Assembly (NCBI GenBank): GCA_020348445.1
Contig: CP070751.1
Coordinates: forward strand, 3,651,418 to 3,665,973
Direction: 5' to 3'
DNA: 14,556 nucleotides
Origin: Thermoplasmata archaeon
GTDB lineage: Archaea > Thermoplasmatota > Thermoplasmata > GCA-020350865
Both the position numbers and the translations under genes were made by a program. The notes beneath the pieces were generated by a model that saw only the letters and a list, made by a program, of their open reading frames with translations, made no database searches and was not told where the DNA came from. Shown here piece by piece: positions 60-14,175 of the stretch; position 1 is the stretch's first letter, and the number at the start of each line of letters is the position of its first letter.

Positions 60-338
60 TCATCCCCCACCCACAGGATATGAAATCAACACTTCATCGC
101 CATCATAAAGACATGAAGATAGATCCTTTGATTCACCATTTACTGCAAATATCACGCTTCTGTTTTCGAAATCCTGCTCAACAAGTTTTTTAAATTTTCT
201 TCCATACCGAATGTAAAGCAATTTAAGAAGATTCTCTATTGTGTCGCCCTCTTCTATTTCCACTTTTTCGCTTTTTTTGCCTGTGATTTGGGAAAACGTC
301 ATTAGGTACTTAACAGTAACAAATGGCATGTAAATCAT
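60..338 (-). CDS. MoaD/ThiS/SAMP-family ubiquitin-like (beta-grasp) sulfur carrier
   Basis: About 90 aa with the typical pattern (VTVKY...EIEEGDTIENLL...FAVNG...LYDGDEVLISYPVGGG) and a C-terminal Gly-Gly. It lies in the aor operon, where such carriers serve W/Mo-pterin synthesis. The start is ATG 338 (ATGA overlap) or ATG 329. Confidence 0.9.
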   Translation of the reverse strand: MIYMPFVTVKYLMTFSQITGKKSEKVEIEEGDTIENLLKLLYIRYGRKFKKLVEQDFENRSVIFAVNGESKDLSSCLYDGDEVLISYPVGGG

Positions 339-2611: not shown

Positions 2612-3106
2612 CTACCTTGAAGATGTCATTCGCGCCTCAGAGAAGGCACGGGCAGTTTTTTCTGCCCTTCTTGTTCTTTTGGTTCTTGGAAGCTCATCAA
2701 GTTTATCTGAATATGTAATTGCCTTTGTCTCGCACCACTTAACGCATTCAGGCTCACCTGAGCAAAGGTCGCATTTGTAAAATTTTCTATTGTCCTCGTC
2801 GTAATGTATGGCTCCAAATGGACATACTGCAAGGCACTGCTTGCAGCCTATGCATGCATCTGGATTGAGGATAACTGCATTGGTTTTCTTGTCCTCAGAT
2901 ATTGCCTTTACTGGACATACGAGCATGCATACTGCAGAGTCGCAGTGCTCGCATCCCACTGGAACGTCAATTCCTTCCTCGTCTATTCGAACCACCCTGA
3001 TTCTGGATTTTGAAGGTGAAAAGACCTCCTCGTGATAAAAGCTACAGGCGAGTTCGCAGGCCCGACAGCCTGTGCAGTTTTCTGAATTGAATGTGAGCTT
3101 TGGCAT
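2612..3106 (-). CDS. 4x[4Fe-4S] electron-transfer subunit (DmsB/NrfC-like) partnering the AOR
   Basis: CTGCRACELAC, CEHCDSAVCMLVC, CIGCKQCLAVC and CDLC...PECVKWC motifs, 9 nt from the aor start. ATG 3106 is preferred over the track's GTG 3121. Confidence 0.92.
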   Translation of the reverse strand: MPKLTFNSENCTGCRACELACSFYHEEVFSPSKSRIRVVRIDEEGIDVPVGCEHCDSAVCMLVCPVKAISEDKKTNAVILNPDACIGCKQCLAVCPFGAIHYDEDNRKFYKCDLCSGEPECVKWCETKAITYSDKLDELPRTKRTRRAEKTARAFSEARMTSSR

Positions 3107-3159
3107 GGGTGATACGTCCACGAGATTCTTTGGTTGAATGTTCTTAACTGAATCAAAAG

Positions 3160-3265: not shown

Positions 3266-3273
3266 TTATATAT
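3266..3273 (+). promoter_or_regulatory. Candidate TATA box of the reductase-synthetase fusion gene
   Basis: TTATATAT ~57 nt upstream of the inferred start at 3330. Confidence 0.45.
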
Positions 3274-3329
3274 CACCCTCAGAACTCAGATAATTACAGC
3301 GATTTCACTGAAAAACAGGGCGTGAGAGT

Positions 3330-6131
3330 ATAGGCGGGACAATACTACTTACAGGTGCAAACGGTTTTCTTGGAACCCAAATCGCACTTCGAATCATAAA
3401 GGAAACTGACCACAAGATAATAGCGTTGGTGAGAGCAAAAAACGAAAAAGCAGCAGTGCAAAGGCTAAAAAGAACATGGTGGGACTGGCCAGAGCTTATC
3501 AGAGCAATAGAAAATCGTATCGAGATTTTTAAGGGAGATATCTCAGAGACCAACATCGGTCTAGATCAAACCAAATACGATTATCTGGTAAAAAGAACAA
3601 CCCATATAATCCACACTGCAGCAGACATGCGCCTTGGAGGGCCTATAGACGAGCTGAGGAAGGTCAATGTTCAGGGTACAGCAAACATAATCAAATTTGC
3701 AAAAGCAATCCACATGGACCATGGTCTCACACGATACTCACACGTCTCCACCGCCTATGTTGCAGGTGCCCGAAAAGGGGATGTCCCAGAGGATTCCTTA
3801 ACAGGAGAATACGGATTCTCAAGCCCCTACGAGCTCAGCAAGTACGAGGGCGAGGTGCTTGTTCAGAAGGCCAAGTCCCAATTGCCGATTTCGGTTTTCA
3901 GACCTGGTATGGTGGTTGGAGACTCAAAAACAGGCCAGATAAAGACCTTCAACACCCTCTACTTCCCTCTAAGACTATACTTCAAAGGCCAGTTGAGGAT
4001 ACTACCGGTTAGGTCCTCTTTGAGGGTGAACCTCATCCCTGTGGATTACGTAGCAGACGCAGTTGTAAAACTCACATTCGAGCCAAAGGCCAAAGGATTG
4101 AACTTTCACCTCACTGCACCCTATAAATCATTACCAACTGCAAAGGAGCTGGTTTTGTTCTCAAGGGATTGGGCAAAAAAGAACCTTGGAGTCAAACTCA
4201 AAAAACCACTTTTCATACCTGCACCCACTGGAGCAACAAAGGGAAGGTACAGAACTCAAAAGGTGGTCCAGAAGCATAAAAGAGGCTTTTTGGATGCTTT
4301 GATCATTCTTGCACCGTACTTCAACGAGCGCCGAAGATTTAAAAGGGACAATGTGAACAGGTTCCTTGGAACATATGAACTTAAATGGAAGGAGGTCATG
4401 GAAAACTTACTTGGTTACGCGGCCTACATGGGATTTCTGCATAGATCAGACCGAACTGTGCATGAACAGATCCTTTTCCGACTTTCCAGTAAAAGCATGC
4501 CCGTCACATATCATGATGTATTTGACGGACAGATCGTAACCAGGACTGGAAGCCAATTGAGATCTGACATAATCAGTGCTGCATGGGCTTTAAAGTCCAT
4601 TGGTGTTAAACCTGGGGACCGAGTGGCCATTGTGGGCCATAACAGTACAAGGTATCTTACACTTGATGTGGCTATAGGAATTATCGGGGCCGTGAGCGTC
4701 CCTGTGTACTACACAAGCCCTCCTTCAGAAATAGACAAAATTGTATCAGCCTCACAAGCCAAGGTTTTATTTGTGGGTGCACCAAAGATTCTCGAAAAAA
4801 TTCACGAGCTCACAGTGGATATTCCTGTTATTTCCTTTTGCCGAAAGATCCCGAAATATAAATCAAAAAGAACCATCGATAATTGGGGTGAATTTCTTGC
4901 CAAAGGAAAAGAAGATGATATCCCCCCTGAGCCAGAGTACGGATTTGGTGATCTCGCAACTGTCAGATATACCTCTGGAACCACGGGAAAACCAAAGGGT
5001 GTTTATTTTGATCACGAGAGGCTGAGATGGATGGGTGAATCATTATGTGCAATCTTACCCTGGAAGCCCAAGAACTCTGGGATCATTTACCTCTCGTTTT
5101 TACCCATGAACCACGTGGTCGAAGGCATCCTTGCCATGTACGCACCCTACTATGCACCTGGACCTCTGAACATTTACTATCTCGAGGATTTCAGGGAGCT
5201 CCAGGATACATTGAGAAAGGCAAGACCAACAATATTTTTCTCAGTTCCCAGATTCTATGAAAAGGTCTGGGATGGAGTTTTAGAAAATAATGTAGGACAG
5301 AAGTATATAAACTCCAAGGATGGCTTTAAAAAGAACGTGCTTCGCAACCTATTGAGAAAGGGGCTTTTAAAGAAAGTGGGTCTTGACCGCTGTGCACAGC
5401 TTGTTGTGGGGGCAGCTCCTGCGGGAGAGGACCTTTTAACCAATTTCAGGGAGCTGGGAATTGAAATACACAATGCCTATGGGCTTACCGAGGCTCCCCT
5501 TGTCACAATGAATCTTCTGGGCAACAATAAGATCGGAACTGTGGGCCGTCCCTTGCCCAGAACCAAACTACGTATTGCAGAAGACGAAGAGCTTCTTGTA
5601 AAAGGTCCCCAGGTAACATTGGGGTACCTGGATTCCGAAATCGAGCCTCCTGTAAAGGACGGATGGCTGTATACCGGGGATTTGGCCAAGATCACGTCAG
5701 ACAATTGCCTTGTGATTCATGGAAGGAAAAAGGAGCTTATCGTTACGTCGTATGGAAAGAACATTCATCCCACAAAAATCGAGGCAATGCTAAAGGAAAT
5801 CCAAGGTGTGGAGGAGGCCATGGTTGTGGGGGACGGAAAGCCCTTTTGCGGGGCCTTTTTATGGGTATCTGGGGAGGAAAAAGGGAGTTTTATCAATACA
5901 ATCGAGAGGTCCATTATGGAGGTTAACAAACGCCTTTCTAACCCTGAGCAGTTGAAGCGCTGGGCAATTCTAAAAAACGACCTCTCAATTGAGCAGGGGG
6001 ATTTGACTGCTTCTCTCAAGCTCAAGCGCTGGGATGTTATGAAAAGAAGAGAGGATGTGGTAAATGCCCTTTACGGTAGTAAAATTTCAAAGCTTAATGG
6101 ACTTGTTCATCTGGGGGGCAAAAAGGGATAA
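3330..6131 (+). CDS. Fusion: N-terminal thioester/fatty-acyl-CoA reductase (extended SDR) + C-terminal long-chain acyl-CoA synthetase (AMP-binding), ~933 aa
   Basis: Reductase motifs: ILLTGANGFLG (3342-3374, in frame upstream of the track's TTG 3426), HTAA, NVQGT, HVSTAYV, YELSK (YxxxK), FRPGMVVG and IPVDYVA. Synthetase motifs: YTSGTTGKPKG, SFLPMNH, SVPRFYEK, AYGLTE, TGDL, GRKKELIVTSYGKNI and LTASLKLKR. The start is inferred at ATA 3330. Confidence 0.9.
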   Translation: MGGTILLTGANGFLGTQIALRIIKETDHKIIALVRAKNEKAAVQRLKRTWWDWPELIRAIENRIEIFKGDISETNIGLDQTKYDYLVKRTTHIIHTAADMRLGGPIDELRKVNVQGTANIIKFAKAIHMDHGLTRYSHVSTAYVAGARKGDVPEDSLTGEYGFSSPYELSKYEGEVLVQKAKSQLPISVFRPGMVVGDSKTGQIKTFNTLYFPLRLYFKGQLRILPVRSSLRVNLIPVDYVADAVVKLTFEPKAKGLNFHLTAPYKSLPTAKELVLFSRDWAKKNLGVKLKKPLFIPAPTGATKGRYRTQKVVQKHKRGFLDALIILAPYFNERRRFKRDNVNRFLGTYELKWKEVMENLLGYAAYMGFLHRSDRTVHEQILFRLSSKSMPVTYHDVFDGQIVTRTGSQLRSDIISAAWALKSIGVKPGDRVAIVGHNSTRYLTLDVAIGIIGAVSVPVYYTSPPSEIDKIVSASQAKVLFVGAPKILEKIHELTVDIPVISFCRKIPKYKSKRTIDNWGEFLAKGKEDDIPPEPEYGFGDLATVRYTSGTTGKPKGVYFDHERLRWMGESLCAILPWKPKNSGIIYLSFLPMNHVVEGILAMYAPYYAPGPLNIYYLEDFRELQDTLRKARPTIFFSVPRFYEKVWDGVLENNVGQKYINSKDGFKKNVLRNLLRKGLLKKVGLDRCAQLVVGAAPAGEDLLTNFRELGIEIHNAYGLTEAPLVTMNLLGNNKIGTVGRPLPRTKLRIAEDEELLVKGPQVTLGYLDSEIEPPVKDGWLYTGDLAKITSDNCLVIHGRKKELIVTSYGKNIHPTKIEAMLKEIQGVEEAMVVGDGKPFCGAFLWVSGEEKGSFINTIERSIMEVNKRLSNPEQLKRWAILKNDLSIEQGDLTASLKLKRWDVMKRREDVVNALYGSKISKLNGLVHLGGKKG

Positions 6132-6150: not shown

Positions 6151-6756
6151 TTATTTGGCATCCTCAACCATATCATAACCCAGTTCAAAGGCCCTTGTAT
6201 TGATATCTTTTGAATAAGAAGGAGACCTTTTTTGGACTATCTCCAAAACAATCTCTTTTGGCAAGGGAACGGCGCCGCAGGCAGAAATCGCCCCTATCAT
6301 CACAGCGTTCATGGAAATGGGATTGCCGGCCTGTTCTGCAAGGGAAGTGGCGTTCAGAGCGTATATTTCCCTTGAATAGTTGATTATGATGTCTATGATA
6401 TCATTTACTTCAGGGTAAGAGCCTTTTCCTGTTGATACGCTAACTGGAACAACTGGTTTTGTGTTGAGGATGATCTTGGATCCTGAATCCATGAAATGCA
6501 TATGTCTTAACGCCTCTGCTGGCTCGAATGCAGCAAGCAGTTTTCCAGTGCCTACAGGAATAAGGGGTGTGTAAAGCTCTTCTCCAAATCTGATATGAGA
6601 TGCCACTGCACCTCCGCGCCTTGCCATGCCGTGCTCTTCAAAGGCATATACTCTGTAACCCTCTGACAGTGCCGATTCTAAGATTATCTGCCCTGCAAAT
6701 ATGATGCCCTGGCCTCCAACTCCGGCAAGGAGCATGTCGAAATTCTTAGATTCCAT
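6151..6756 (-). CDS. iorB: Indolepyruvate:ferredoxin oxidoreductase family beta subunit
   Basis: LAGVGGQG, EEHGMARRGGAVASHIRFG and AFEPAEALR motifs, directly after iorA. ATG 6756 has a GAAGGAG SD (the track start 6828 is too long). Confidence 0.92.
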   Translation of the reverse strand: MESKNFDMLLAGVGGQGIIFAGQIILESALSEGYRVYAFEEHGMARRGGAVASHIRFGEELYTPLIPVGTGKLLAAFEPAEALRHMHFMDSGSKIILNTKPVVPVSVSTGKGSYPEVNDIIDIIINYSREIYALNATSLAEQAGNPISMNAVMIGAISACGAVPLPKEIVLEIVQKRSPSYSKDINTRAFELGYDMVEDAK

Positions 6757-6760
6757 TGAT

Positions 6761-8665
6761 TTACTCTCCTTCAAATCCAATGGCACCCTTGGCGCAGACC
6801 TCCTTTTGTAGGCAAACACCACATCCATTGCACAACGTGGTATCTATATCCACCTGATCATCCCTGATGTACATGGCAGGACAGCCAAATCTATCTATAC
6901 ATATTCTGCAGTCCTTGCAGAGCTCGTAGTCTATTTTTACACATGGGATTTCTGATGTTCCCCTTTTTGCCTTTACATCCAACATCTTACACAAACCCTG
7001 AGAAATTATTACAGCAGGTCCCTTGTGGGCAATCCCGTCTTTTATTGCATCTACCAGTTCCTTGATATTGTAGGTGTCCACAGTTTTTACAAATTTCACA
7101 CCGCAAGCCTTGGCAACTTCCTCAATTGAAATGGCACTGCATTCTTCACCACATGCATTTACCCCGACTCCGGGATGGGGTTGAAATCCAGTCATTGCAG
7201 TGGTTCTGTTGTCCAAAATTAAGACCGTGATGTCGGCCTTGTTGAACACGGAATTAAGAAGCGGTGGGATGCCTGCATGGAAAAAAGTGGAGTCACCAAT
7301 TGTGCAAACCACAGGATCGTCGATCACCTTGGAAAAACCGCTAGAAATGCCGATTGAAGCGCCCATACAGAAATTGACATCAACTGCAGAAAGAGGGGAT
7401 TGAAAGCCCAGGGTGTAACAGCCTATATCGGTGGGTTTTACAAATCCCTCTGATTTTTCCTCACCTTTTTTGAACTTTCTTTCCACTATTCTAAGGGCAT
7501 AGAATACGGCTCTATGACCACAACCAGGGCATAGAACAGGAGGCCTTGGTGGGGCAAGCTGGCCCGCTTTTTCTTGAACATCCAGGATTTTGGTTATATC
7601 TATTGGCAGCTGAGTTTCTGTGAATTTGGATACAGCCTCAACTACCTTGAATACTGAAAGCTCCCCGGCAAGGGGAATCAGCTCTTTTCCGAAAATTGGA
7701 ATGGAAATACCCATTTTATTAGCCTGGGCCCTCACTTCGGTTTCCACAAAGGGCTCCAATTCTTCCACAACAAGGACCTTTTCGGAACTGGAAAGTACGT
7801 TTTCCACCAGTTCATTTGGAATGGGATAAGATGTGCCTATTTTCAGCAATTTCACGTTATCAGAAATGCCAAGTACATTGAGGGCCTCCTTTACATAGCC
7901 ATAGGCTATTCCAGAGGTGATAATACCATATTTGGCTGAATCTTCACCTTCGATTCTGTTGAAGTTCAGGGAGTTTACAGCCTTTTGTATGCGTTTTAGC
8001 CTTTTAATGAGCTCCAATCTCAATTTTCTCGCGTTTTTGGGCAGATTTACCCACCTATTGGGCATTTTCTCGAATTTTCCTTTTCTTTTTTCTTTGGGTA
8101 ATTCACCAAGCGTGATATCGGCACTCGTATGTGCTATTCTCGTTGTAATCCTCAGCATGACAGGCTGGCCCCATTCTTCAGATAAGGTCAATACCGATTT
8201 TGCCATGTCCTTGGCTTCCCTGGGATCAAAGGGCTCAAAAACTGGAATATATGCCTCCCTTGCAAAAAAGCGATTGTCCTGCTCTGTATGGGAGCTGTGA
8301 CAGCCAACATCATCGGCACTTACTAGCACGATCCCTCCTTTTGCCCCCATGTACGTAAAAGCCTGAAAGGGCTCAGAGGCAACATTTACCCCCACACCCT
8401 TCATTGAGACCATGGACCTCAATCCAGCAAGTGAGGCTGCTATGGCAATCTCGGAAGCCACCTTTTCGTTCACTGACCACTCCACATAGATATCATGTTG
8501 GGAACTAATCATTATCAAAGTGGCCATGATTTCAGATGAAGGAGTTCCAGGATACGAGGCCCCGACGTTTAGGCCGCCCTCCAAAAAACCCCTTGCTATG
8601 GCCTCATTACCCATGAGAATGACCTTTTTTTGGGGGGAATCCAATAAAACATCAGATCTGCTCAT
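6761..8665 (-). CDS. iorA: Indolepyruvate:ferredoxin oxidoreductase family alpha subunit
   Basis: LMGNEAIARG, YPGTPSSEI, EWSVNEKVA, LCPGCGHR, DIGCY, TPP motif GDSTFFHAG...ILDNRTTAMTG and a C-terminal 2x[4Fe-4S] domain. The start is inferred at ATG 8665 (MSRSDVLL); the track extension to 8758 is an AT-rich promoter region. Confidence 0.93.
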   Translation of the reverse strand: MSRSDVLLDSPQKKVILMGNEAIARGFLEGGLNVGASYPGTPSSEIMATLIMISSQHDIYVEWSVNEKVASEIAIAASLAGLRSMVSMKGVGVNVASEPFQAFTYMGAKGGIVLVSADDVGCHSSHTEQDNRFFAREAYIPVFEPFDPREAKDMAKSVLTLSEEWGQPVMLRITTRIAHTSADITLGELPKEKRKGKFEKMPNRWVNLPKNARKLRLELIKRLKRIQKAVNSLNFNRIEGEDSAKYGIITSGIAYGYVKEALNVLGISDNVKLLKIGTSYPIPNELVENVLSSSEKVLVVEELEPFVETEVRAQANKMGISIPIFGKELIPLAGELSVFKVVEAVSKFTETQLPIDITKILDVQEKAGQLAPPRPPVLCPGCGHRAVFYALRIVERKFKKGEEKSEGFVKPTDIGCYTLGFQSPLSAVDVNFCMGASIGISSGFSKVIDDPVVCTIGDSTFFHAGIPPLLNSVFNKADITVLILDNRTTAMTGFQPHPGVGVNACGEECSAISIEEVAKACGVKFVKTVDTYNIKELVDAIKDGIAHKGPAVIISQGLCKMLDVKAKRGTSEIPCVKIDYELCKDCRICIDRFGCPAMYIRDDQVDIDTTLCNGCGVCLQKEVCAKGAIGFEGE

Positions 8666-8760
8666 CAAAACCGCTAATATGCTTGCTTCTATAATATTTT
8701 TCTTGATGAAGTTATAATATAAATAATTAGGAATACCAAGAAAGTGCCAAAAAACCACGG

Positions 8761-9123
8761 CTAAGTAAGGGTCTTCAACTTCTCAGCAGCCTTTTCAATC
8801 TCCCACAGAATCATGTCGATATCGTTATTTGCATCAGTTAGGCACATAAGTAACGCATTCGAGCCGGCATTCATGATAATTATATAAGCGTTTCCTGTGT
8901 GGATTATTATCTTCTTTGGAGGCCCTTTTCTGCATTCAGATGTGATATTTTTAGCCGCCCCTAACATAACTGAGCTCATGGCTCCAAATACCTCGTTTGC
9001 ATGAAATCCATATGAAAAATCCGAGAGCACCATATGGCTGTCCCTGTTAATCAGGGCCGACTCTGTCTTGGCATTTGTCTTCAATTCTCTCAAGATACCC
9101 AGGACCTTCTCCTTATACGTCAT
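8761..9123 (-). CDS. Roadblock/LC7 (MglB-like) domain protein, ~120 aa
   Basis: Fold pattern helix-(SALINRDSHMV)-helix(FGAMSSVMLGAAKNI)-IIIHT..YIIIMNAG..LLMCLT-helix matches Roadblock. It follows the GTPase gene. ATG 9123 is preferred over 9165. Confidence 0.85.
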   Translation of the reverse strand: MTYKEKVLGILRELKTNAKTESALINRDSHMVLSDFSYGFHANEVFGAMSSVMLGAAKNITSECRKGPPKKIIIHTGNAYIIIMNAGSNALLMCLTDANNDIDMILWEIEKAAEKLKTLT

Positions 9124-9161
9124 CTTTATAACCTTTTCCCATTCATAGATTTGGTAAAATC

Positions 9162-9737
9162 TCAAGAGCCAGTGTTTATACGTTCAGGATTCTTTAGGTA
9201 TTCTTCTATCATCCTTTTGCCAAGGGTTTTGAATGCCTCTTCCACATTTACACCTGTTTTTGCACTTGTTAGATACCAAAGGGAGCTGTGGATTTCCGCA
9301 AGCATCTCCATGTCTTTCTCGTTTACTTTTTCCTTACCTTGTAAATCGCTTTTATTTCCTATGAAGATAGTGGGGATATTAGCATCGCCTTCCCCCTGTA
9401 ATGATTCCATCCAGTTGTTAAGGCTCTCCATGGTCTCAGGACGAGTTATATCGCACACAAGCAGAGCTCCGCCTGCACCGTGAAGGTATGAATGGTGCAA
9501 AAGCCCTCTAAAATGTATATCACCTATAATATCCCATATCATGAAAGTCAAATTGAATATCTTATCGTACTTTGGCATTTCTATGGAAATCTGTTTTTTA
9601 GTGACTTTGGTTCCCATTGTCATTAGATAGCTATCGTCAAATATATCGTACACATATTTTTTTATCAGACTCGTTTTTCCAACGGAGCTATCCCCTAAAA
9701 AGCATACCTTCAAGGTCAGGTTCACTTCCTCAGTCAT
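9162..9737 (-). CDS. Rab-like Ras-superfamily small GTPase, 191 aa
   Basis: G1 GDSSVGKTS, G2 YLMTMG, G3 WDIIGD, G4 NKSD and G5 SAK, plus Rab-like KVCFLG and SYLHGAGGALLVCDIT. SD GGAAGTGA lies 4 nt before the ATG. Confidence 0.93.
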   Translation of the reverse strand: MTEEVNLTLKVCFLGDSSVGKTSLIKKYVYDIFDDSYLMTMGTKVTKKQISIEMPKYDKIFNLTFMIWDIIGDIHFRGLLHHSYLHGAGGALLVCDITRPETMESLNNWMESLQGEGDANIPTIFIGNKSDLQGKEKVNEKDMEMLAEIHSSLWYLTSAKTGVNVEEAFKTLGKRMIEEYLKNPERINTGS

Positions 9738-10258: not shown

Positions 10259-11197
10259 TTATTCCACTATTCCCCCGACTCCGCATTTGGAGCACCTAAC
10301 ATTCAAAGGCCTTTTGGGAACCGAGACTCTGATAATCCCTTGGCACTCTGGACATTCAAATCTCCTTGGGAGCAATCCCCCTTTCGGTTTAGGCCCAATA
10401 GGGGAAAAGACCAAAGGAGAATCGACCTCCTCTGTTTCGTGGTTTTCGAATCTTGACCAGCCATCTTCTTTATGTGCAGTTGGGAAATTACGGGTTTCGT
10501 AATTAACAGATGGTATGGAGTATTCCCGTGAGAGGGGACTTGGCTGTGGCTTGGATAGAATAACCAAAAACAATGAAACAACGCATATTATCATGGAGCA
10601 CATGGCCATCAACCATCCATTTGATCCACCCCAGCTGAACTCTACATGAGCGCTTCCGAAATCATATTCTTCAGATCCAAAGAAAGACTCAGTCATCTTT
10701 TGGGAAACGGGATCAATGTCAGGATCATCCCCTAGATCCTTTTCATATGCGGCAGGAAGTGCAAACATGATGTACAAAGGTGCGATAAGGGAGAGGATAA
10801 CGGCAATTAGGACCAGGAAAGCCCCGAATTTAGGTCCAATTTTACGGAAAACAACCATTGTGGCTCCAAGAAGGCCGATTATACATCCAACTAAACCTAC
10901 GAAGGCTAAAACCTGGGTTGTTCTGAACGTCTGAAAAATATTCAAATCCTTTATAGACTCGTTGTCATAACTAATACTAGTTGACGTGGAAAAAGTGGGG
11001 CCAAAATAGCCATAGGAGGAACCCACACTTCCACTGATTTCTGCATGGTCAAAAAAATATTCAACGCTGCTTCGGGCAGATATTCCAGAGGCACTAACCT
11101 TAGATTCTTGTCTGTACCAGGGCATGATCAGAGACAGGGTCATAAATATTAATGCCATGACCATTAGTATCGTTCCGATTTCCGCCTTCCACTTCAC
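10259..11197 (-). CDS. 4-TM membrane protein with C-terminal zinc ribbon (paralog A), ~312 aa
   Basis: Four hydrophobic segments, LSLIMPWY after TM1, and CPEC...CSKCG at the C-terminus. GTG 11197 aligns its N-terminus exactly with paralog B and has AGGTGG upstream. Confidence 0.85.
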   Translation of the reverse strand: MKWKAEIGTILMVMALIFMTLSLIMPWYRQESKVSASGISARSSVEYFFDHAEISGSVGSSYGYFGPTFSTSTSISYDNESIKDLNIFQTFRTTQVLAFVGLVGCIIGLLGATMVVFRKIGPKFGAFLVLIAVILSLIAPLYIMFALPAAYEKDLGDDPDIDPVSQKMTESFFGSEEYDFGSAHVEFSWGGSNGWLMAMCSMIICVVSLFLVILSKPQPSPLSREYSIPSVNYETRNFPTAHKEDGWSRFENHETEEVDSPLVFSPIGPKPKGGLLPRRFECPECQGIIRVSVPKRPLNVRCSKCGVGGIVE

Positions 11198-11239
11198 GAT
11201 ACCACAACCACCTGCCAAATGTTTCTTAAGAGGTTGTGT

Positions 11240-11340: not shown

Positions 11341-12291
11341 TCAATCTACAATTCCCCTCAATCCACAGTAAGGGCAGTTCAGAATCGCGGGCCTCTTTCC
11401 AGGTGCTAAAATAAATATTTTAGAGCAATCTGGGCATTGGAACTGATCCCCCTTAGATTTTAAAGAGGGGGGAATATTCAGTGCGGGAGGGGGAGCTTTT
11501 GGTTCTGCTTTAAAGACCATCTCACCAGCTGGGGATTCAGGTTGAAATACTGGCCCGGCCATAGGCTCTTCCAAGGGCGCTGGAGATTCTGGTTGAAATG
11601 TTACAACACCAGGTTGTTCTATTGGCTGTGCCTGGAAGACTGGCTCTGCTGCGGGTTTTGATGTTGCCACAAAAATCAGGGCAATTATGCATAATATCAT
11701 GGCGATGATGGGAAGGAACCATCCCGTGGAGCCGCCCCATGTGAGCTCAGCAGTCACATTCTCATTTTCGGTTTTGTCTGAACCAAAGAAATTATCACCC
11801 ATCTTTTCAAAGGGATAATAGCTTATAGTACCGGACTCATCCTCTTCTTTAAACGTGGGTGGTAATGATGTCATTAGGTAAATCGGGGCAATAAGGGTGA
11901 GAATAACTGCGAGGAAAACGAGTATGGTCCCCATCCAGGGTTTGATTTTTCCCAACATTACCATGGCTGCTCCAATCAGACCCAAAATACATCCAATTAA
12001 TCCAACGAACACAATGATTCGAGTGGTTTTAAAGATATCCACGGATTTATTGTCTTTAAAAGTTTCATTTTCATAACTTAATTCAAAGGTGACTTCAGTT
12101 GGAACACCGAATACTTTTCCCTTATATTGTTCCTTTGCATGATCCAGGTAGAATTCAGCAACAGCGCTCTCCTCTTCCCCATTTTCAGTTGCCAAAACCT
12201 CTATACTGAACCAAGGCATAATTAAAGATAATCCTACTAAAACTAATGCTACGAGAACTAGTATCATCCCGACAAGTGCTTTCTTTTGCAT
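11341..12291 (-). CDS. 4-TM membrane protein with Pro-rich linker and C-terminal zinc ribbon (paralog B), ~316 aa
   Basis: Shares LSLIMPW, F.TT....FVGL.GCI.GL.GA.MV, LIAP.Y.M..LP, KM...FFGS and WGGS.GW with paralog A, and ends CPDC...CPYCG. The start is inferred at ATG 12291 (MQKKALVG). Confidence 0.87.
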   Translation of the reverse strand: MQKKALVGMILVLVALVLVGLSLIMPWFSIEVLATENGEEESAVAEFYLDHAKEQYKGKVFGVPTEVTFELSYENETFKDNKSVDIFKTTRIIVFVGLIGCILGLIGAAMVMLGKIKPWMGTILVFLAVILTLIAPIYLMTSLPPTFKEEDESGTISYYPFEKMGDNFFGSDKTENENVTAELTWGGSTGWFLPIIAMILCIIALIFVATSKPAAEPVFQAQPIEQPGVVTFQPESPAPLEEPMAGPVFQPESPAGEMVFKAEPKAPPPALNIPPSLKSKGDQFQCPDCSKIFILAPGKRPAILNCPYCGLRGIVD

Positions 12292-12400
12292 GCAAACACA
12301 AGCACCCGAACTATATTTAGAGAATAAATATTTTTTTATACGTGATTTTATCAATAAAGTGGATTTATAGGCATTTTAATCTCTAAACGACGATAATTTA

Positions 12401-12449: not shown

Positions 12450-13340
12450 ATGCCTTATTGTCCCAATTGCGCAAATCCTGTTACTGGGAGAATTTGCCAG
12501 TACTGTGGCTATGATGTCTATCGTCCCCCACAAATACCCCAAGCCCAATACGGCCCACCAATAGGAGAAATAATAGGTAAAAGTACTGTGGCTAAAATGG
12601 GAATTGCTTTGCTGATAATAGGCATTATTGGCTTGATTTTAGCTGTAGGTGTTCCATGGATTATTGCTGAGAGAGAGGTAGGAGATTATTACGAGGAGAT
12701 ATATGAGTGCCAAGAATGTGGATATTCAGAAGATTCCTACTTCTACCGATGCCCAGAATGCGAATCCTATGACGTAGACTGGGATGAGGTATATGTAGAG
12801 GGAGAAACAGCTTCTTTTTCGTTTAACTATGATTTAGATCTCGTCGATGGTGATGAAGATGATTGGGGCTTAGATAAATTCACTACCGGCGAAATGGAGG
12901 ATTACTTTGAAGACACCATTGGTCAAGCATTTATTGGCCTTATTTTAACGATAGTTATTGCTATAATCCTAATAATTGTGGGAATCATGGCCTTTTCAGG
13001 CAGACATCAAACTGTAATCTTTCAGGGATTAACTGTTATTGTTGCGGCAATATTATTGATCCCTGCCGTACTGATGATCGTTTCTGGGATTAATCTGGTT
13101 GGATTTAATATACTAGAGGGGCATTATAACGAGAATCAAGAAAAAACTGGAGACGAGGTGACCTCTTCAACTATTTATCCCGCAGGATATTTGGTACTAA
13201 TATTTGGTCTAATCATATTAATTTTCGCCTTTACAATCATGATAAAAGAACTTCATAATATCTCTTCGTCTCAGCAGACCCAGTCAGCTCCCATTCAGCC
13301 TCGCTCACCCCAATATCCTGGAGGTGATTTTTATAGATAA
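12450..13340 (+). CDS. 4-TM membrane protein with N-terminal zinc ribbon and a second CxxC..CxxC in the loop after TM1 (C), 296 aa
   Basis: MPYCPNC...CQYCG, a Pro/Gln linker, TM1-PW, an acidic loop with YECQECG...RCPECES, then three more TM segments. Confidence 0.87.
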   Translation: MPYCPNCANPVTGRICQYCGYDVYRPPQIPQAQYGPPIGEIIGKSTVAKMGIALLIIGIIGLILAVGVPWIIAEREVGDYYEEIYECQECGYSEDSYFYRCPECESYDVDWDEVYVEGETASFSFNYDLDLVDGDEDDWGLDKFTTGEMEDYFEDTIGQAFIGLILTIVIAIILIIVGIMAFSGRHQTVIFQGLTVIVAAILLIPAVLMIVSGINLVGFNILEGHYNENQEKTGDEVTSSTIYPAGYLVLIFGLIILIFAFTIMIKELHNISSSQQTQSAPIQPRSPQYPGGDFYR

Positions 13341-14175
13341 TCTGTTTGCTGATAAGGCCCAAAAATTGGCATTCACATTGGTTGTCGTTAGCATTATCGG
13401 ATTGTTCACAATTCCTTTATTTCCCTGGTTTGGATTAAAATCTGATGATACTCATTCCGATACTGGTGAAAAGGTCACAGTCATTGAATACACCTATGGA
13501 AATTCTGGGTATTTACACATGTTAGCGGAATCTAGTTTCTTATTTTCTGATGTTGAGGACGAAATTGAGGATCTAGACGGCGATGTCAGCATGATAAGCC
13601 TTTGTTTTTGGCTTTCCTTATTTTTCGGAATTATCGCAATTGGTGGGGTTGCGTTATATCGCACAGGGAAGGCCCAAGGAACTGCACATGTGATGTTATT
13701 GATAGGTTCCATTATAATCGTTTTCTGTATAATAGCTTTAATTTCCCATGTGACATTCTTTATTCATTTAGGAGATTTTGAAGATGAATTTAGCGATGAT
13801 AGTGAGATAACATATGGTTATAATTACTTTCCATTGATCTTTTTGATAATATTACTTCTAGCTTCCATTGCATATATTGCAATAGTTGTGCCATTTTCTA
13901 AAAGAGCATTATCGCAGATGACTTATGGGGGTGGATATGCGGATCAATACCAATATCCAAAATATCAACAACAGTATCCCCAATATCAACAGCAAGTTAC
14001 ACAAACACCTTCATACCAATATCAACAGCCATCCAGACAACCACCACCAAGGCCATCATCTCTACCCACTGAGGTTTCTTGCCCAACATGCAAATACGTG
14101 ATAGCTGTCAAGGTAGATCGGCTTCCCAAGCCCATAAGATGTCCTCAATGTGGGACAAGGGGATTTATCGAGTAA
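13333..14175 (+). CDS. 4-TM membrane protein with Gln/Tyr/Pro-rich linker and C-terminal zinc ribbon (D), ~280 aa
   Basis: TM1-PW, three more TM segments, a YQQQYPQYQQQ linker and CPTC...CPQCGTRGFIE. The start is either GTG 13324 (inside the SD) or ATA 13333 (5 nt after a perfect GGAGGTGA). Confidence 0.85.
   Translation: MDNLFADKAQKLAFTLVVVSIIGLFTIPLFPWFGLKSDDTHSDTGEKVTVIEYTYGNSGYLHMLAESSFLFSDVEDEIEDLDGDVSMISLCFWLSLFFGIIAIGGVALYRTGKAQGTAHVMLLIGSIIIVFCIIALISHVTFFIHLGDFEDEFSDDSEITYGYNYFPLIFLIILLLASIAYIAIVVPFSKRALSQMTYGGGYADQYQYPKYQQQYPQYQQQVTQTPSYQYQQPSRQPPPRPSSLPTEVSCPTCKYVIAVKVDRLPKPIRCPQCGTRGFIE

Follow-up and report, generated by a model that had tools for sequence, protein, structure and literature searches.

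What could a single polypeptide accomplish in which a thioester-reductase-like domain precedes a long-chain acyl-CoA synthetase, with no phosphopantetheinyl carrier? The question is raised by a gene on a 14,556-nucleotide stretch of DNA (the window) from a large-genome lineage of Thermoplasmata within the Thermoplasmatota, a host that is archaeal, as the preliminary description of the locus had supposed. The gene occupies positions 3330-6131 of the plus strand, in a single open frame that runs from 3312 to the TAA stop codon at 6129-6131; read from an ATA start it encodes 933 residues, 100% identical to the 933-residue protein P0001. A Ras-family GTPase and Roadblock pair is also encoded. An Asgard origin, which this pair suggested, was rejected on the evidence of the nearest named relatives, described below, and because the sample of the phylum shows genome sizes and families of Thermoplasmatota.

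Domain architecture of the fusion protein

Scanned against Pfam, the protein matched NAD_binding_4 (PF07993) over residues 13-251 (E = 1.8e-59; 201 bits against a cut-off of 20.1), AMP-binding over residues 407-773 (E = 9.7e-59) and AMP-binding_C_3 over residues 808-922 (E = 5.4e-11), the latter two also exceeding their cut-offs. Profile, motif and homologue evidence places the reductase core at residues 1-280 (3330-4169, plus strand, as for all features of the gene), followed by a reductase C-terminal subdomain and a conserved junction, with no carrier, at residues 281-400 (4170-4529); profiles and motifs assign residues 401-933 (4530-6128) to an acyl-CoA synthetase of the ACSL/FadD11 type. 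The motifs of both enzymes are intact and, across 60 homologues, invariant or nearly so. Those of the reductase are the Rossmann motif TGANGFLG (3351-3374), S140/T141 (3747-3752), Y167 (3828-3830) and K171 (3840-3842), with T141, Y167 and K171 invariant, and those of the ligase are the P-loop YTSGTTGKPKG (4968-5000), YGLTE (5478-5492), the FACS-like signature DGWLYTGD...GRKKE (5655-5765) and K897 (6018-6020), so that P-loop, YGLTE, TGD, hinge Arg and A10 Lys are all present. Together with the AlphaFold2 model described below, the Pfam matches and intact motifs uphold the initial view of one carrier-less polypeptide in which the reductase comes first and an ACSL-type ligase second.

No NCBIfam model was attained at the equivalog level in a profile search. 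The protein fell narrowly under the cut-off of the thioester reductase model TIGR01746 (190 bits, cut-off 213.35), and its matches to the carboxylic acid reductase (CAR) model NF041592 (215.5 bits, cut-off 1300), to FadD11 NF038343 (214.5 bits, cut-off 950) and, for the reductase domain, to the AcrB-type PRK07201 (151 bits, cut-off 549) were well below theirs. It does match FadD11 and long-chain-CoA-ligase profiles, and to judge by these, by AMP-binding_C_3 and by motifs common to stand-alone ligases, the ligase half is of the acyl-CoA-making type. Both halves are under purifying selection (dN 0.13-0.19 with dS saturated; dN/dS about 0.1 for the gene and about 0.09 for the reductase core), and a pseudogene was rejected on this ground.

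The region between the two enzymes

The two enzymes had been described as joined by a short linker, a description that does not survive closer comparison. Stand-alone reductases, which are about 380 residues long, have a C-terminal part with which residues from about 280 to 370 can be aligned. Few stretches of the family are as well conserved as the junction that follows (residues 371-396; HRSDRTVHEQILFRL...), where H371, R375, T376, Q380 and R384 are invariant in the set of 60 homologues. What had seemed a linker belongs to the reductase itself: it is a conserved C-terminal subdomain that packs against the ligase. The nearest reductase relatives beyond the reductase-ligase (R-A) family are likewise stand-alone NAD_binding_4 proteins of about 380 residues without carriers.

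We found no match to PP-binding (PF00550) anywhere in the protein with Pfam, and a scan of residues 251-410 alone at E<=10 returned zero family matches. The AlphaFold2 model (pLDDT 88.2, pTM 0.86) is disordered only at residues 301-318 (18 residues), and a four-helix carrier module additional to the two enzymes was not found in it. On the strength of model, scan and reductase alignment, a concealed or degenerate carrier between the domains was rejected. An acyl-cysteine carrier at C688 or C840, by analogy with LuxE, was also rejected: the two residues are conserved in the fusion, yet they are not universal across the R-A family, both are present in ordinary stand-alone ligases, and C840 is replaced by Gly in one family member. 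The invariant junction and the single compact body of the model argue for a coupled machine.

Distribution of the family and the ancestral gene cassette

The architecture might have been taken for a singular archaeal oddity, but it is common to many archaea and bacteria. More than 100 proteins are collinear with the fusion at 55-84% identity over 98-100% of its length, conserved junction included. Homologues of about 930 residues, at 50-84% identity, are distributed over Bathyarchaeota, Methanobacterium, Methanomassiliicoccales, Chloroflexota, Bacillota and others, and the nearest named relatives come from Thermoplasmata or Methanomassiliicoccales metagenome-assembled genomes. In a tree built from a quick search, the Thermoplasmatota sequences form a clade with 96% support inside which the window's subclade is nested. 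Of the two findings that together would have counted against the preliminary description, wide occurrence is borne out, but assignment to a known pathway is not: full-text searches of the literature found no paper on the architecture or on the four-gene cassette described below. The R-A family is a widespread, uncharacterised one that has moved between archaea and bacteria. It is common in uncultured anaerobes important to sediment carbon cycling (Bathyarchaeota, Thermoplasmata, methanogens and Chloroflexota). As the searches found no paper on it, the outcome of a single assay would provide an annotation for hundreds of genes.

In 27 of 32 homologous loci the fusion gene belongs to a cassette, with a pyruvyl-transferase-like gene upstream and genes for an ATC-hydrolase-like protein and a GMC flavoprotein downstream (the locus contexts exclude P0002, P0003, P0005, P0008, P0010 and the N-truncated P0014-P0021). 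The presence of a CsaB-like pyruvyl transferase in this ancestral setting is a hint that the substrate may not be a plain fatty acid. The partners were not found at the window or at two related loci (L020 and L039) among the 32, and a profile search of the host genome gave zero matches to PS_pyruv_trans (PF04230). The window's clade has lost the ancestral cassette, and the fusion gene persists there under selection.

Proposed reaction

The route from acid through acyl-CoA to aldehyde or alcohol that the preliminary description put forward is, we infer, still the best reading of the protein. On balance we lean towards a bifunctional, carrier-independent enzyme that reduces carboxylic acids with free CoA and NAD(P)H, the presumed substrate, use of CoA and product being those suggested by the two domains. 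The C-terminal ACSL-type domain would adenylate a carboxylic acid of hydrophobic character, probably fatty or aryl-alkyl, and load its acyl group onto free coenzyme A. The conserved junction would keep the N-terminal NAD_binding_4 domain in a rigid position against the ligase, and this domain would use NAD(P)H to convert the acyl-CoA into an aldehyde, which it might reduce further to the alcohol. Fatty-acid chemistry had been thought unexpected in an archaeon, an argument that is weak because the host genome has matches to acyl-CoA dehydrogenase, five of them full-length and one a short fragment, together with several further acyl-CoA ligases and one cluster of phosphopantetheinyl transferase (PPTase), ACP and ligase genes at 787-790 kb, and because haloarchaea are documented to make wax esters from fatty acids (PMC11948995).

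Neighbouring genes

Divergent from the fusion gene lies a minus-strand operon for a tungsten-type aldehyde:ferredoxin oxidoreductase (AOR; 566-2602) and its poly-[4Fe-4S] electron-transfer subunit (2612-3121), with a gene for an archaeal MoaD-family small protein, a sulfur carrier for the pterin cofactor, downstream of AOR (60-338, minus strand; TIGR01687, 72 bits, cut-off 49.5). Convergent with the fusion, also on the minus strand, are the genes for the alpha subunit of indolepyruvate:ferredoxin oxidoreductase (IOR), IorA (6761-8758; TIGR03336, 751 bits, cut-off 650.9), and for IorB (6151-6828), the stop codon of the latter 20 nt from that of the fusion. In the Thermoplasmata lineage the R-A gene has left its usual four-gene cassette and stands alone beside the AOR operon and IOR.

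Could the fusion and AOR, with or without IOR, form an acid/aldehyde/acyl-CoA redox node? In one version the acid would be reduced, at the expense of ATP and NAD(P)H, to an aldehyde that AOR would re-oxidise to yield reduced ferredoxin, uphill from NAD(P)H; in the other, IOR would make acyl-CoA, whose reduction to aldehyde or alcohol would serve as an electron sink. AOR adjoins the fusion gene throughout the window's subclade (the window, L020, L039, L048 and G303), IorAB is convergent at 20 nt in three genomes, and the loss of the cassette in the window's clade suggests a new role. The Thermoplasmata adjacencies are nevertheless not independent, because the genomes are close kin: the AOR/IOR synteny belongs mostly to a single clade at genus level, in which insertions vary in size (0.2-7 kb), and in the genus-mate G301 a truncated fusion copy has neither AOR nor IOR nearby. 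An independent adjacency is seen in a single Chloroflexota bacterium, where AOR (only 37% identical), ThiF and the fusion follow one another in that order on one strand. Since the genes of the window lie on separate strands and in separate operons, the host has six AOR paralogues, an ATP-consuming cycle between acid and aldehyde would be costly, and nothing ties the substrates of AOR, IOR and the fusion together, we regard such a node as unlikely. A lineage in which the fusion sits beside AOR and IOR after losing its cassette nonetheless offers a natural experiment on the stand-alone role of the enzyme.

Alternatives to a relay through free CoA

A different reading dispenses with any relay between the domains. 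The SDR half would act on some other substrate, for example an intermediate that is linked to a sugar or stems from the cassette. The acyl-CoA, amide or ester formed by the ligase half would serve a separate purpose, and fusion would only ensure co-expression. The usual neighbours of the gene, a CsaB-like pyruvyl transferase, an ATC-hydrolase-like protein and a GMC flavoprotein, are not a classical fatty-alcohol context, and the N-terminal half gives weak additional Pfam matches to Epimerase, 3Beta_HSD and GDP_Man_Dehyd. These sugar-SDR models lie far below NAD_binding_4 (E 3e-16 against 1.8e-59), however, and thioester-reductase structures head the matches of the reductase; the invariance of the junction, the single compact body predicted for the protein and the retention of the gene under selection after cassette loss also speak against two unconnected activities, which we consider improbable.

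The third possibility is that a carrier is supplied in trans, the ligase loading a separate holo-ACP or PCP from which the reductase releases the product, as in TamA/TamH. PtTamH, a natural carrier-less thioester-reductase fusion, required an acyl-ACP partner, and its reductase domain rejected free acyl-CoA (PMC9594044). Both halves of our protein are closest in PDB sequence to domains of CARs, which depend on a carrier, and the host genome encodes a PPTase (787471-787794) and an 89-residue PP-binding protein (788083-788277). That sole carrier gene is, however, 2.9 Mb away in a cluster with its own ligase, no carrier gene adjoins the fusion in the roughly 35 loci examined, the conserved cassette included, and in its C-terminal domain and motifs the ligase conforms to the CoA-forming enzymes of the ACSL type. 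A carrier in trans seems to us quite unlikely on these grounds, and transfer to free CoA is the reading that we carry forward.

Initiation of translation

The start of the gene is unusual. From the upstream stop codon (3309-3311) as far as the Rossmann motif the frame contains no ATG, GTG or TTG; a canonical start is first reached with the TTG at 3426, initiation at which would remove the NAD(P)H-binding loop. The ATA at 3330-3332 aligns exactly with the Met of homologues and follows a Shine-Dalgarno-like element, AGGGCGTGA (3317-3325, plus strand), after a 4-nt spacer, the arrangement (3317-3332) being conserved in three genomes. The block GGGCGTGAGAG(T/A)ATA is kept in these genomes. The synonymous sites of their genes are saturated, yet the ATA codon and the 12 nt that precede it have been conserved, and they pair at proper spacing with the 3' end of the genome's 16S rRNA, GGATCACCTCCT. 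A possible archaeal TATA box, TTATATAT (3266-3273, plus strand), can be read from the sequence about 55 nt upstream of the start. Most likely, then, translation of the fusion begins at a weak ATA start preceded by a Shine-Dalgarno-like site, which would be a rare case of non-canonical initiation in archaea. An out-of-frame GTG at 3322 opens a mini-ORF, GTG AGA GWA TAR, in all three ATA genomes; translation might begin there and reach the gene through a frameshift or by re-initiating beyond the mini-ORF. We consider this a less likely course than simple initiation at the ATA: the GTG lacks a Shine-Dalgarno site of its own, and GTGA forms the core of the base-pairing with the 16S 3' end. That the gene is instead decaying or silent, yielding only a truncated protein from TTG 3426 with a dead reductase, is very improbable despite the missing canonical start, the truncation of the G301 copy at 762 residues and a frameshift in the copy of Methanobacterium ferruginis, since the 32 codons before TTG 3426 are conserved as protein while their synonymous sites vary, the reductase core is constrained as described above, and the ATA block has been preserved.

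Comparison with known systems

Carrier-independent reduction of fatty acids to aldehydes at the expense of ATP and NADPH is known from LuxC/LuxE. The Lux proteins belong to families unrelated to the fusion, however, and work through acyl-enzyme cysteine intermediates. The NAD_binding_4 reductases of the FarA (Maqu_2220) and AcrB (PRK07201) types act on free acyl-CoA without a carrier. Their reductase fold and catalytic Tyr and Lys recur in the fusion, which differs in having neither the FAR-type "Sterile" C-terminal domain nor the second SDR domain of AcrB in the Pfam scan and in being joined to a CoA ligase of its own. FarA and AcrB have been surveyed as recognised types of bacterial fatty acyl-CoA reductase (PMC11948995). 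A comparison with Myxococcus ElbD, drawn earlier, turns out to be loose. As far as the survey's account of it goes, ElbD is made up of FadD, ACP, FarA and PlsC-like parts (PMC11948995); it does combine fatty-acid activation with an NAD_binding_4 reductase in one protein, but its ACP and PlsC/AGPAT acyltransferase domains were not found in the fusion by the Pfam scan. With the ACSL/FadD11/COG1022 ligases the fusion shares AMP-binding and AMP-binding_C_3, all core motifs and the FACS-like signature; it is 32-38% identical to stand-alone ligases of about 600 residues from the same phylum, with which it also has GRKKE...GKNI and LK(L/I)(K/R)R in common, and it differs from them in its 400-residue N-terminal reductase and in falling under every equivalog cut-off.

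A close parallel is offered by the CARs (EC 1.2.1.30; Nocardia iowensis and Segniliparus rugosus; PDB 5msc, 5mso and 5msp), which likewise unite an ANL adenylation domain and an NAD_binding_4 reductase in one polypeptide, rank first in the PDB by sequence for both halves and by structure for the ligase half, and carry out the net chemistry predicted for the fusion, from acid, ATP and NAD(P)H to aldehyde. Whereas a CAR has the order A-T-R and a mobile phosphopantetheinyl carrier, the fusion has the order R-A (reductase at residues 13-251, ligase at 407-922), a rigid conserved junction, an ACSL-type C-terminal domain in its ligase, and no carrier, so that no PPTase would be needed. If acids are indeed reduced via free CoA, the enzyme would be a simpler relative of the biocatalytic CARs, requiring neither carrier domain nor helper PPTase, and would fill a gap among the known cellular routes from acids to aldehydes. 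We put forward only tentatively, and with some doubt, the further proposal that it represents a fifth natural type of CAR, free of carrier and phosphopantetheinylation, in which CoA itself, diffusible or transiently held, would serve as the swinging arm from ligase to reductase, the two being locked in place by their conserved junction, and that in this Thermoplasmata lineage it was recruited from an envelope or lipid cassette to an acid/aldehyde/acyl-CoA redox node with AOR and IOR.

Results

The open frame on the plus strand runs from 3312 to a TAA at 6129–6131, and the 933-residue fusion that it encodes (3330–6131) has an NAD_binding_4 reductase domain at residues 13–251 (Pfam E value of 1.8e-59) followed by AMP-binding (residues 407–773, 9.7e-59) and AMP-binding_C_3 (residues 808–922, 5.4e-11) domains. 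The top NCBIfam matches (long-chain-fatty-acid-CoA ligase, carboxylic acid reductase, FadD11 and thioester-reductase domain) all score under their curated cut-offs, and in a PDB sequence search the carboxylic acid reductases (CARs) 5mso, 5msc and 5msp were the top matches for each half, followed by MxaA and PKS/NRPS reductase domains. No PP-binding domain was found by Pfam scan in the entire protein, nor in residues 251–410 scanned separately at E ≤ 10. These matches bear out the anatomy in the preliminary description, a reductase followed by a CoA ligase without a phosphopantetheine carrier.

What had been described as a short linker is not one. When residues 1–400 were searched against 1.84 billion representatives, the nearest reductase relatives beyond the fusion family were stand-alone NAD_binding_4 proteins of ∼380 residues (30–37% identity), which align with the fusion up to about residue 370, the PYFxxxRxFxxxN motif included. 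Residues 280–370 are thus the C-terminal subdomain of the reductase itself, and the true junction is residues 371–396 (HRSDRTVHEQILFRL...), among the best-conserved stretches of the family, with H371, R375, T376, Q380 and R384 invariant in 60 sequences. An AlphaFold2 model built with 60 homologues gave a mean pLDDT of 88.2 and a pTM of 0.86, with disorder only at residues 301–318; for a two-enzyme fusion, such a pTM means a confident prediction of how the two halves are placed relative to each other. Judged from its conservation and this model, the junction is predicted to be a rigid interface.

Across the 60-sequence family alignment (mean column identity 64%), the invariant or near-invariant residues include the GxxGxxG glycines, S140, T141, Y167 and K171 of the reductase and S549-G-T-T, K556, E721, D784, R799, K810 and K897 of the ligase. 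Comparison of the gene with two relatives of ∼75% identity gave a dN of 0.13–0.19 and a dS of 1.4 or saturated, with dN/dS of ∼0.1 or lower for both halves alike. A Lux-like acyl-cysteine relay through the conserved C688 and C840 was ruled out, as ordinary stand-alone ligases of the phylum share both cysteines.

No in-frame ATG, GTG or TTG occurs from the stop at 3309–3311 to the Rossmann motif, and translation from TTG 3426, the earliest canonical start, would leave out the NAD(P)H loop. In the database the protein begins at ATA 3330, where the start of homologues (M-G/T/S-x-x-I/V-L-L-T-G) aligns exactly. The sequence GGGCGTGAGAG(T/A)ATA is also present, again with no canonical in-frame start, in L020 (an uncultured Thermoplasmata MAG, the same genome as G304; fusion 76% identical) and L039 (a metagenome contig; 75% identical); many synonymous changes follow directly after it in both. 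A 15-nucleotide block is kept in three genomes despite saturated synonymous sites. The ATA stands behind a Shine-Dalgarno-like AGGGCGTGA site in each (window 3317–3332, L020 ∼7989–8003, L039 ∼1236–1250). In the window, AGGGCGUGA (3317–3325) pairs with the 3′ end of the genome's 16S rRNA, GGATCACCTCCT, with one mismatch and one G-U, and 4 nucleotides separate it from the ATA. From these features we conclude that translation starts, probably weakly, at the ATA behind the putative Shine-Dalgarno site. An out-of-frame mini-ORF (GTG AGA GWA TAR) overlaps the ATA, and as it does so in all three genomes alike, the fusion might instead, though less probably, be translated by re-initiation after it. 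The genus-mates G301 and G303 start with GTG and ATG, respectively. Gene callers drop the N terminus where the start codon is non-canonical; the called protein lacks its N terminus in 8 of the 21 closest database homologues, and this cause was confirmed among them for L020 only.

A widespread architecture, one half of what the preliminary description had set against its own reading, is what the searches revealed: >100 database clusters of ∼930 residues are 55–84% identical to the fusion over its full length. Named archaeal hosts include many Bathyarchaeota, Methanobacterium, Methanomassiliicoccaceae and Thermoplasmata, and named bacterial hosts include Chloroflexota, Bacillota, Poribacteria, Vecturithrix and a betaproteobacterium, so the interest once attached to an archaeal host falls away. 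The family forms a few tens of clusters at 50% identity, and in the ESM Atlas it is represented by three clusters with 50–124 members. Of the 301 genomes sampled from the host phylum, only 6 have the full-length fusion, and the other matches there are mostly stand-alone ligases; a copy occurs in four of the six genomes of the host's order. In the genus-mate G301 (CP070739, "Methanomassiliicoccales archaeon bin396"), the minus-strand copy on the 3.2-Mb chromosome (locus L065) stops after 762 residues, its ligase end gone. The gene of Methanobacterium ferruginis NBRC 105197, cultured and with a complete genome, has a frameshift near residue 495 in the ligase domain (L021:7989–10834) which marks either a pseudogene or an error in sequencing.

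Among named relatives, those nearest to the window's gene are Thermoplasmata MAGs, which places the host in the Thermoplasmatota as a large-genome representative. A quick maximum-likelihood search placed the gene within a 9-row Thermoplasmata clade (100% support), nested in turn among other Thermoplasmatota families in a clade of 19 rows (96%). Bathyarchaeota cluster with Poribacteria and Caldilinea sequences, and Methanobacterium with Bacillota; these mixed groupings indicate several inter-domain transfers.

Neighbour genes were clustered for 32 fusion loci. A CsaB-like polysaccharide pyruvyl transferase (∼410 residues) lies immediately 5′ in 27 of these, and an ATC_hydrolase-like protein (∼205 residues) and a GMC-family flavoprotein (∼440 residues) immediately 3′ in 24. 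This cassette, which at times ends with a 153-residue protein of no known family, occurs in Bathyarchaeota, Methanobacterium, Methanomassiliicoccaceae, Chloroflexota and Bacillota; L009:6769–13171 is an example, and others are L010–L018, L021–L030, L040–L045 and L072. No carrier gene was found in the cassette loci examined. The clustering found no cassette partner in the window, L020 or L039, and PS_pyruv_trans has zero matches genome-wide in the window's genome.

In the window's clade the fusion gene is flanked not by the cassette but by a divergent MoaD, tungsten-type aldehyde:ferredoxin oxidoreductase (AOR) and poly-ferredoxin operon and by convergent indolepyruvate:ferredoxin oxidoreductase genes (IorBA). 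The gap to the AOR operon is 0.2 kb in the window and 5–7 kb in G304 and G303, and a Ras-like GTPase lies within it in L039 and L048. A functional tie of AOR and IorBA to the fusion is a lead rather than a finding. It is favored by a Chloroflexota locus without the cassette (L070:5500–11805), where AOR, ThiF and a 58% identical fusion lie on one strand and the AOR is just 37% identical to that of the window, which makes the association independent of the Thermoplasmata case; another Chloroflexia locus likewise without the cassette has no AOR. Against it, the Thermoplasmata examples are closely related, the transcription units are separate, the window's genome has six AOR paralogues, and the shortened G301 copy is sited elsewhere with neither AOR nor IOR nearby. 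One of the six paralogues (G000:C1:3336051–3337085) contains an in-frame TAG, which could be a break or, given the NCBI label of the lineage as Methanomassiliicoccales, a pyrrolysine codon.

Also in the window, a small GTPase of the Ras family (Pfam Ras, E value of 1.3e-34) is paired with a Roadblock/LC7 protein (8761–9737, minus strand); a second Ras-like gene occurs at L039:436–924 and L048:3769–4263. The pair had hinted at an Asgard host, a reading rejected in view of the Thermoplasmatota placement above. Three paralogous ORFs of ∼280–340 residues with no Pfam family (10259–11218 and 11341–12354, minus; 13324–14175, plus) are conserved, alongside the GTPase pair, in both L020 and L039. The genome, a single contig of 5.16 Mb, is unusually large against the 1.3–2.3 Mb of class-mates in the phylum sample.

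Discussion

The fusion most likely provides a three-step route from acid through acyl-CoA to aldehyde or alcohol. The ACSL-type half would adenylate a hydrophobic acid and then form the acyl thioester with free CoA, as is believed for its stand-alone relatives, and the NAD_binding_4 half would then reduce the acyl-CoA to the aldehyde or onward to the alcohol. Free acyl-CoA is already a substrate of fatty acyl-CoA reductases with the same fold. A handover of the thioester between the halves without complete release is suggested by the rigid, conserved junction. The main caution against a free-CoA reading comes by analogy from TamH, a TA-TR fusion without a carrier, which in experiments failed to use free acyl-CoA and required acyl-ACP (PMC9594044). 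The sole PPTase and sole PP-binding protein of the window's genome are encoded 2.9 Mb away (G000:C1:787471–791252, locus L007) with a 500-residue AMP-binding ligase and a 375-residue ORF, in what appears from its gene content to be a small separate carrier-dependent cluster. Given the pyruvyl-transferase-like enzyme of the ancestral cassette, the substrate is not necessarily a plain fatty acid.

Full-text literature searches found no study of the reductase-ligase architecture or of the cassette, and with it no assignment to a known pathway, the other half of what the preliminary description had set against itself. The fusion is a real, widespread and unstudied enzyme design, and the window copy is notable for its cassette-less AOR/IOR setting and conserved ATA start. 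Compared with ACSL-type ligases and NAD_binding_4 reductases, it is a superfamily member at the domain level only. The likeness to ElbD holds for the two domain types in common and goes no further. From its sequence the fusion is predicted to work like a CAR, yet it is not a CAR, differing in domain order, carrier and profile score; where a CAR has a mobile carrier between its domains, the fusion would have a rigid, conserved junction.
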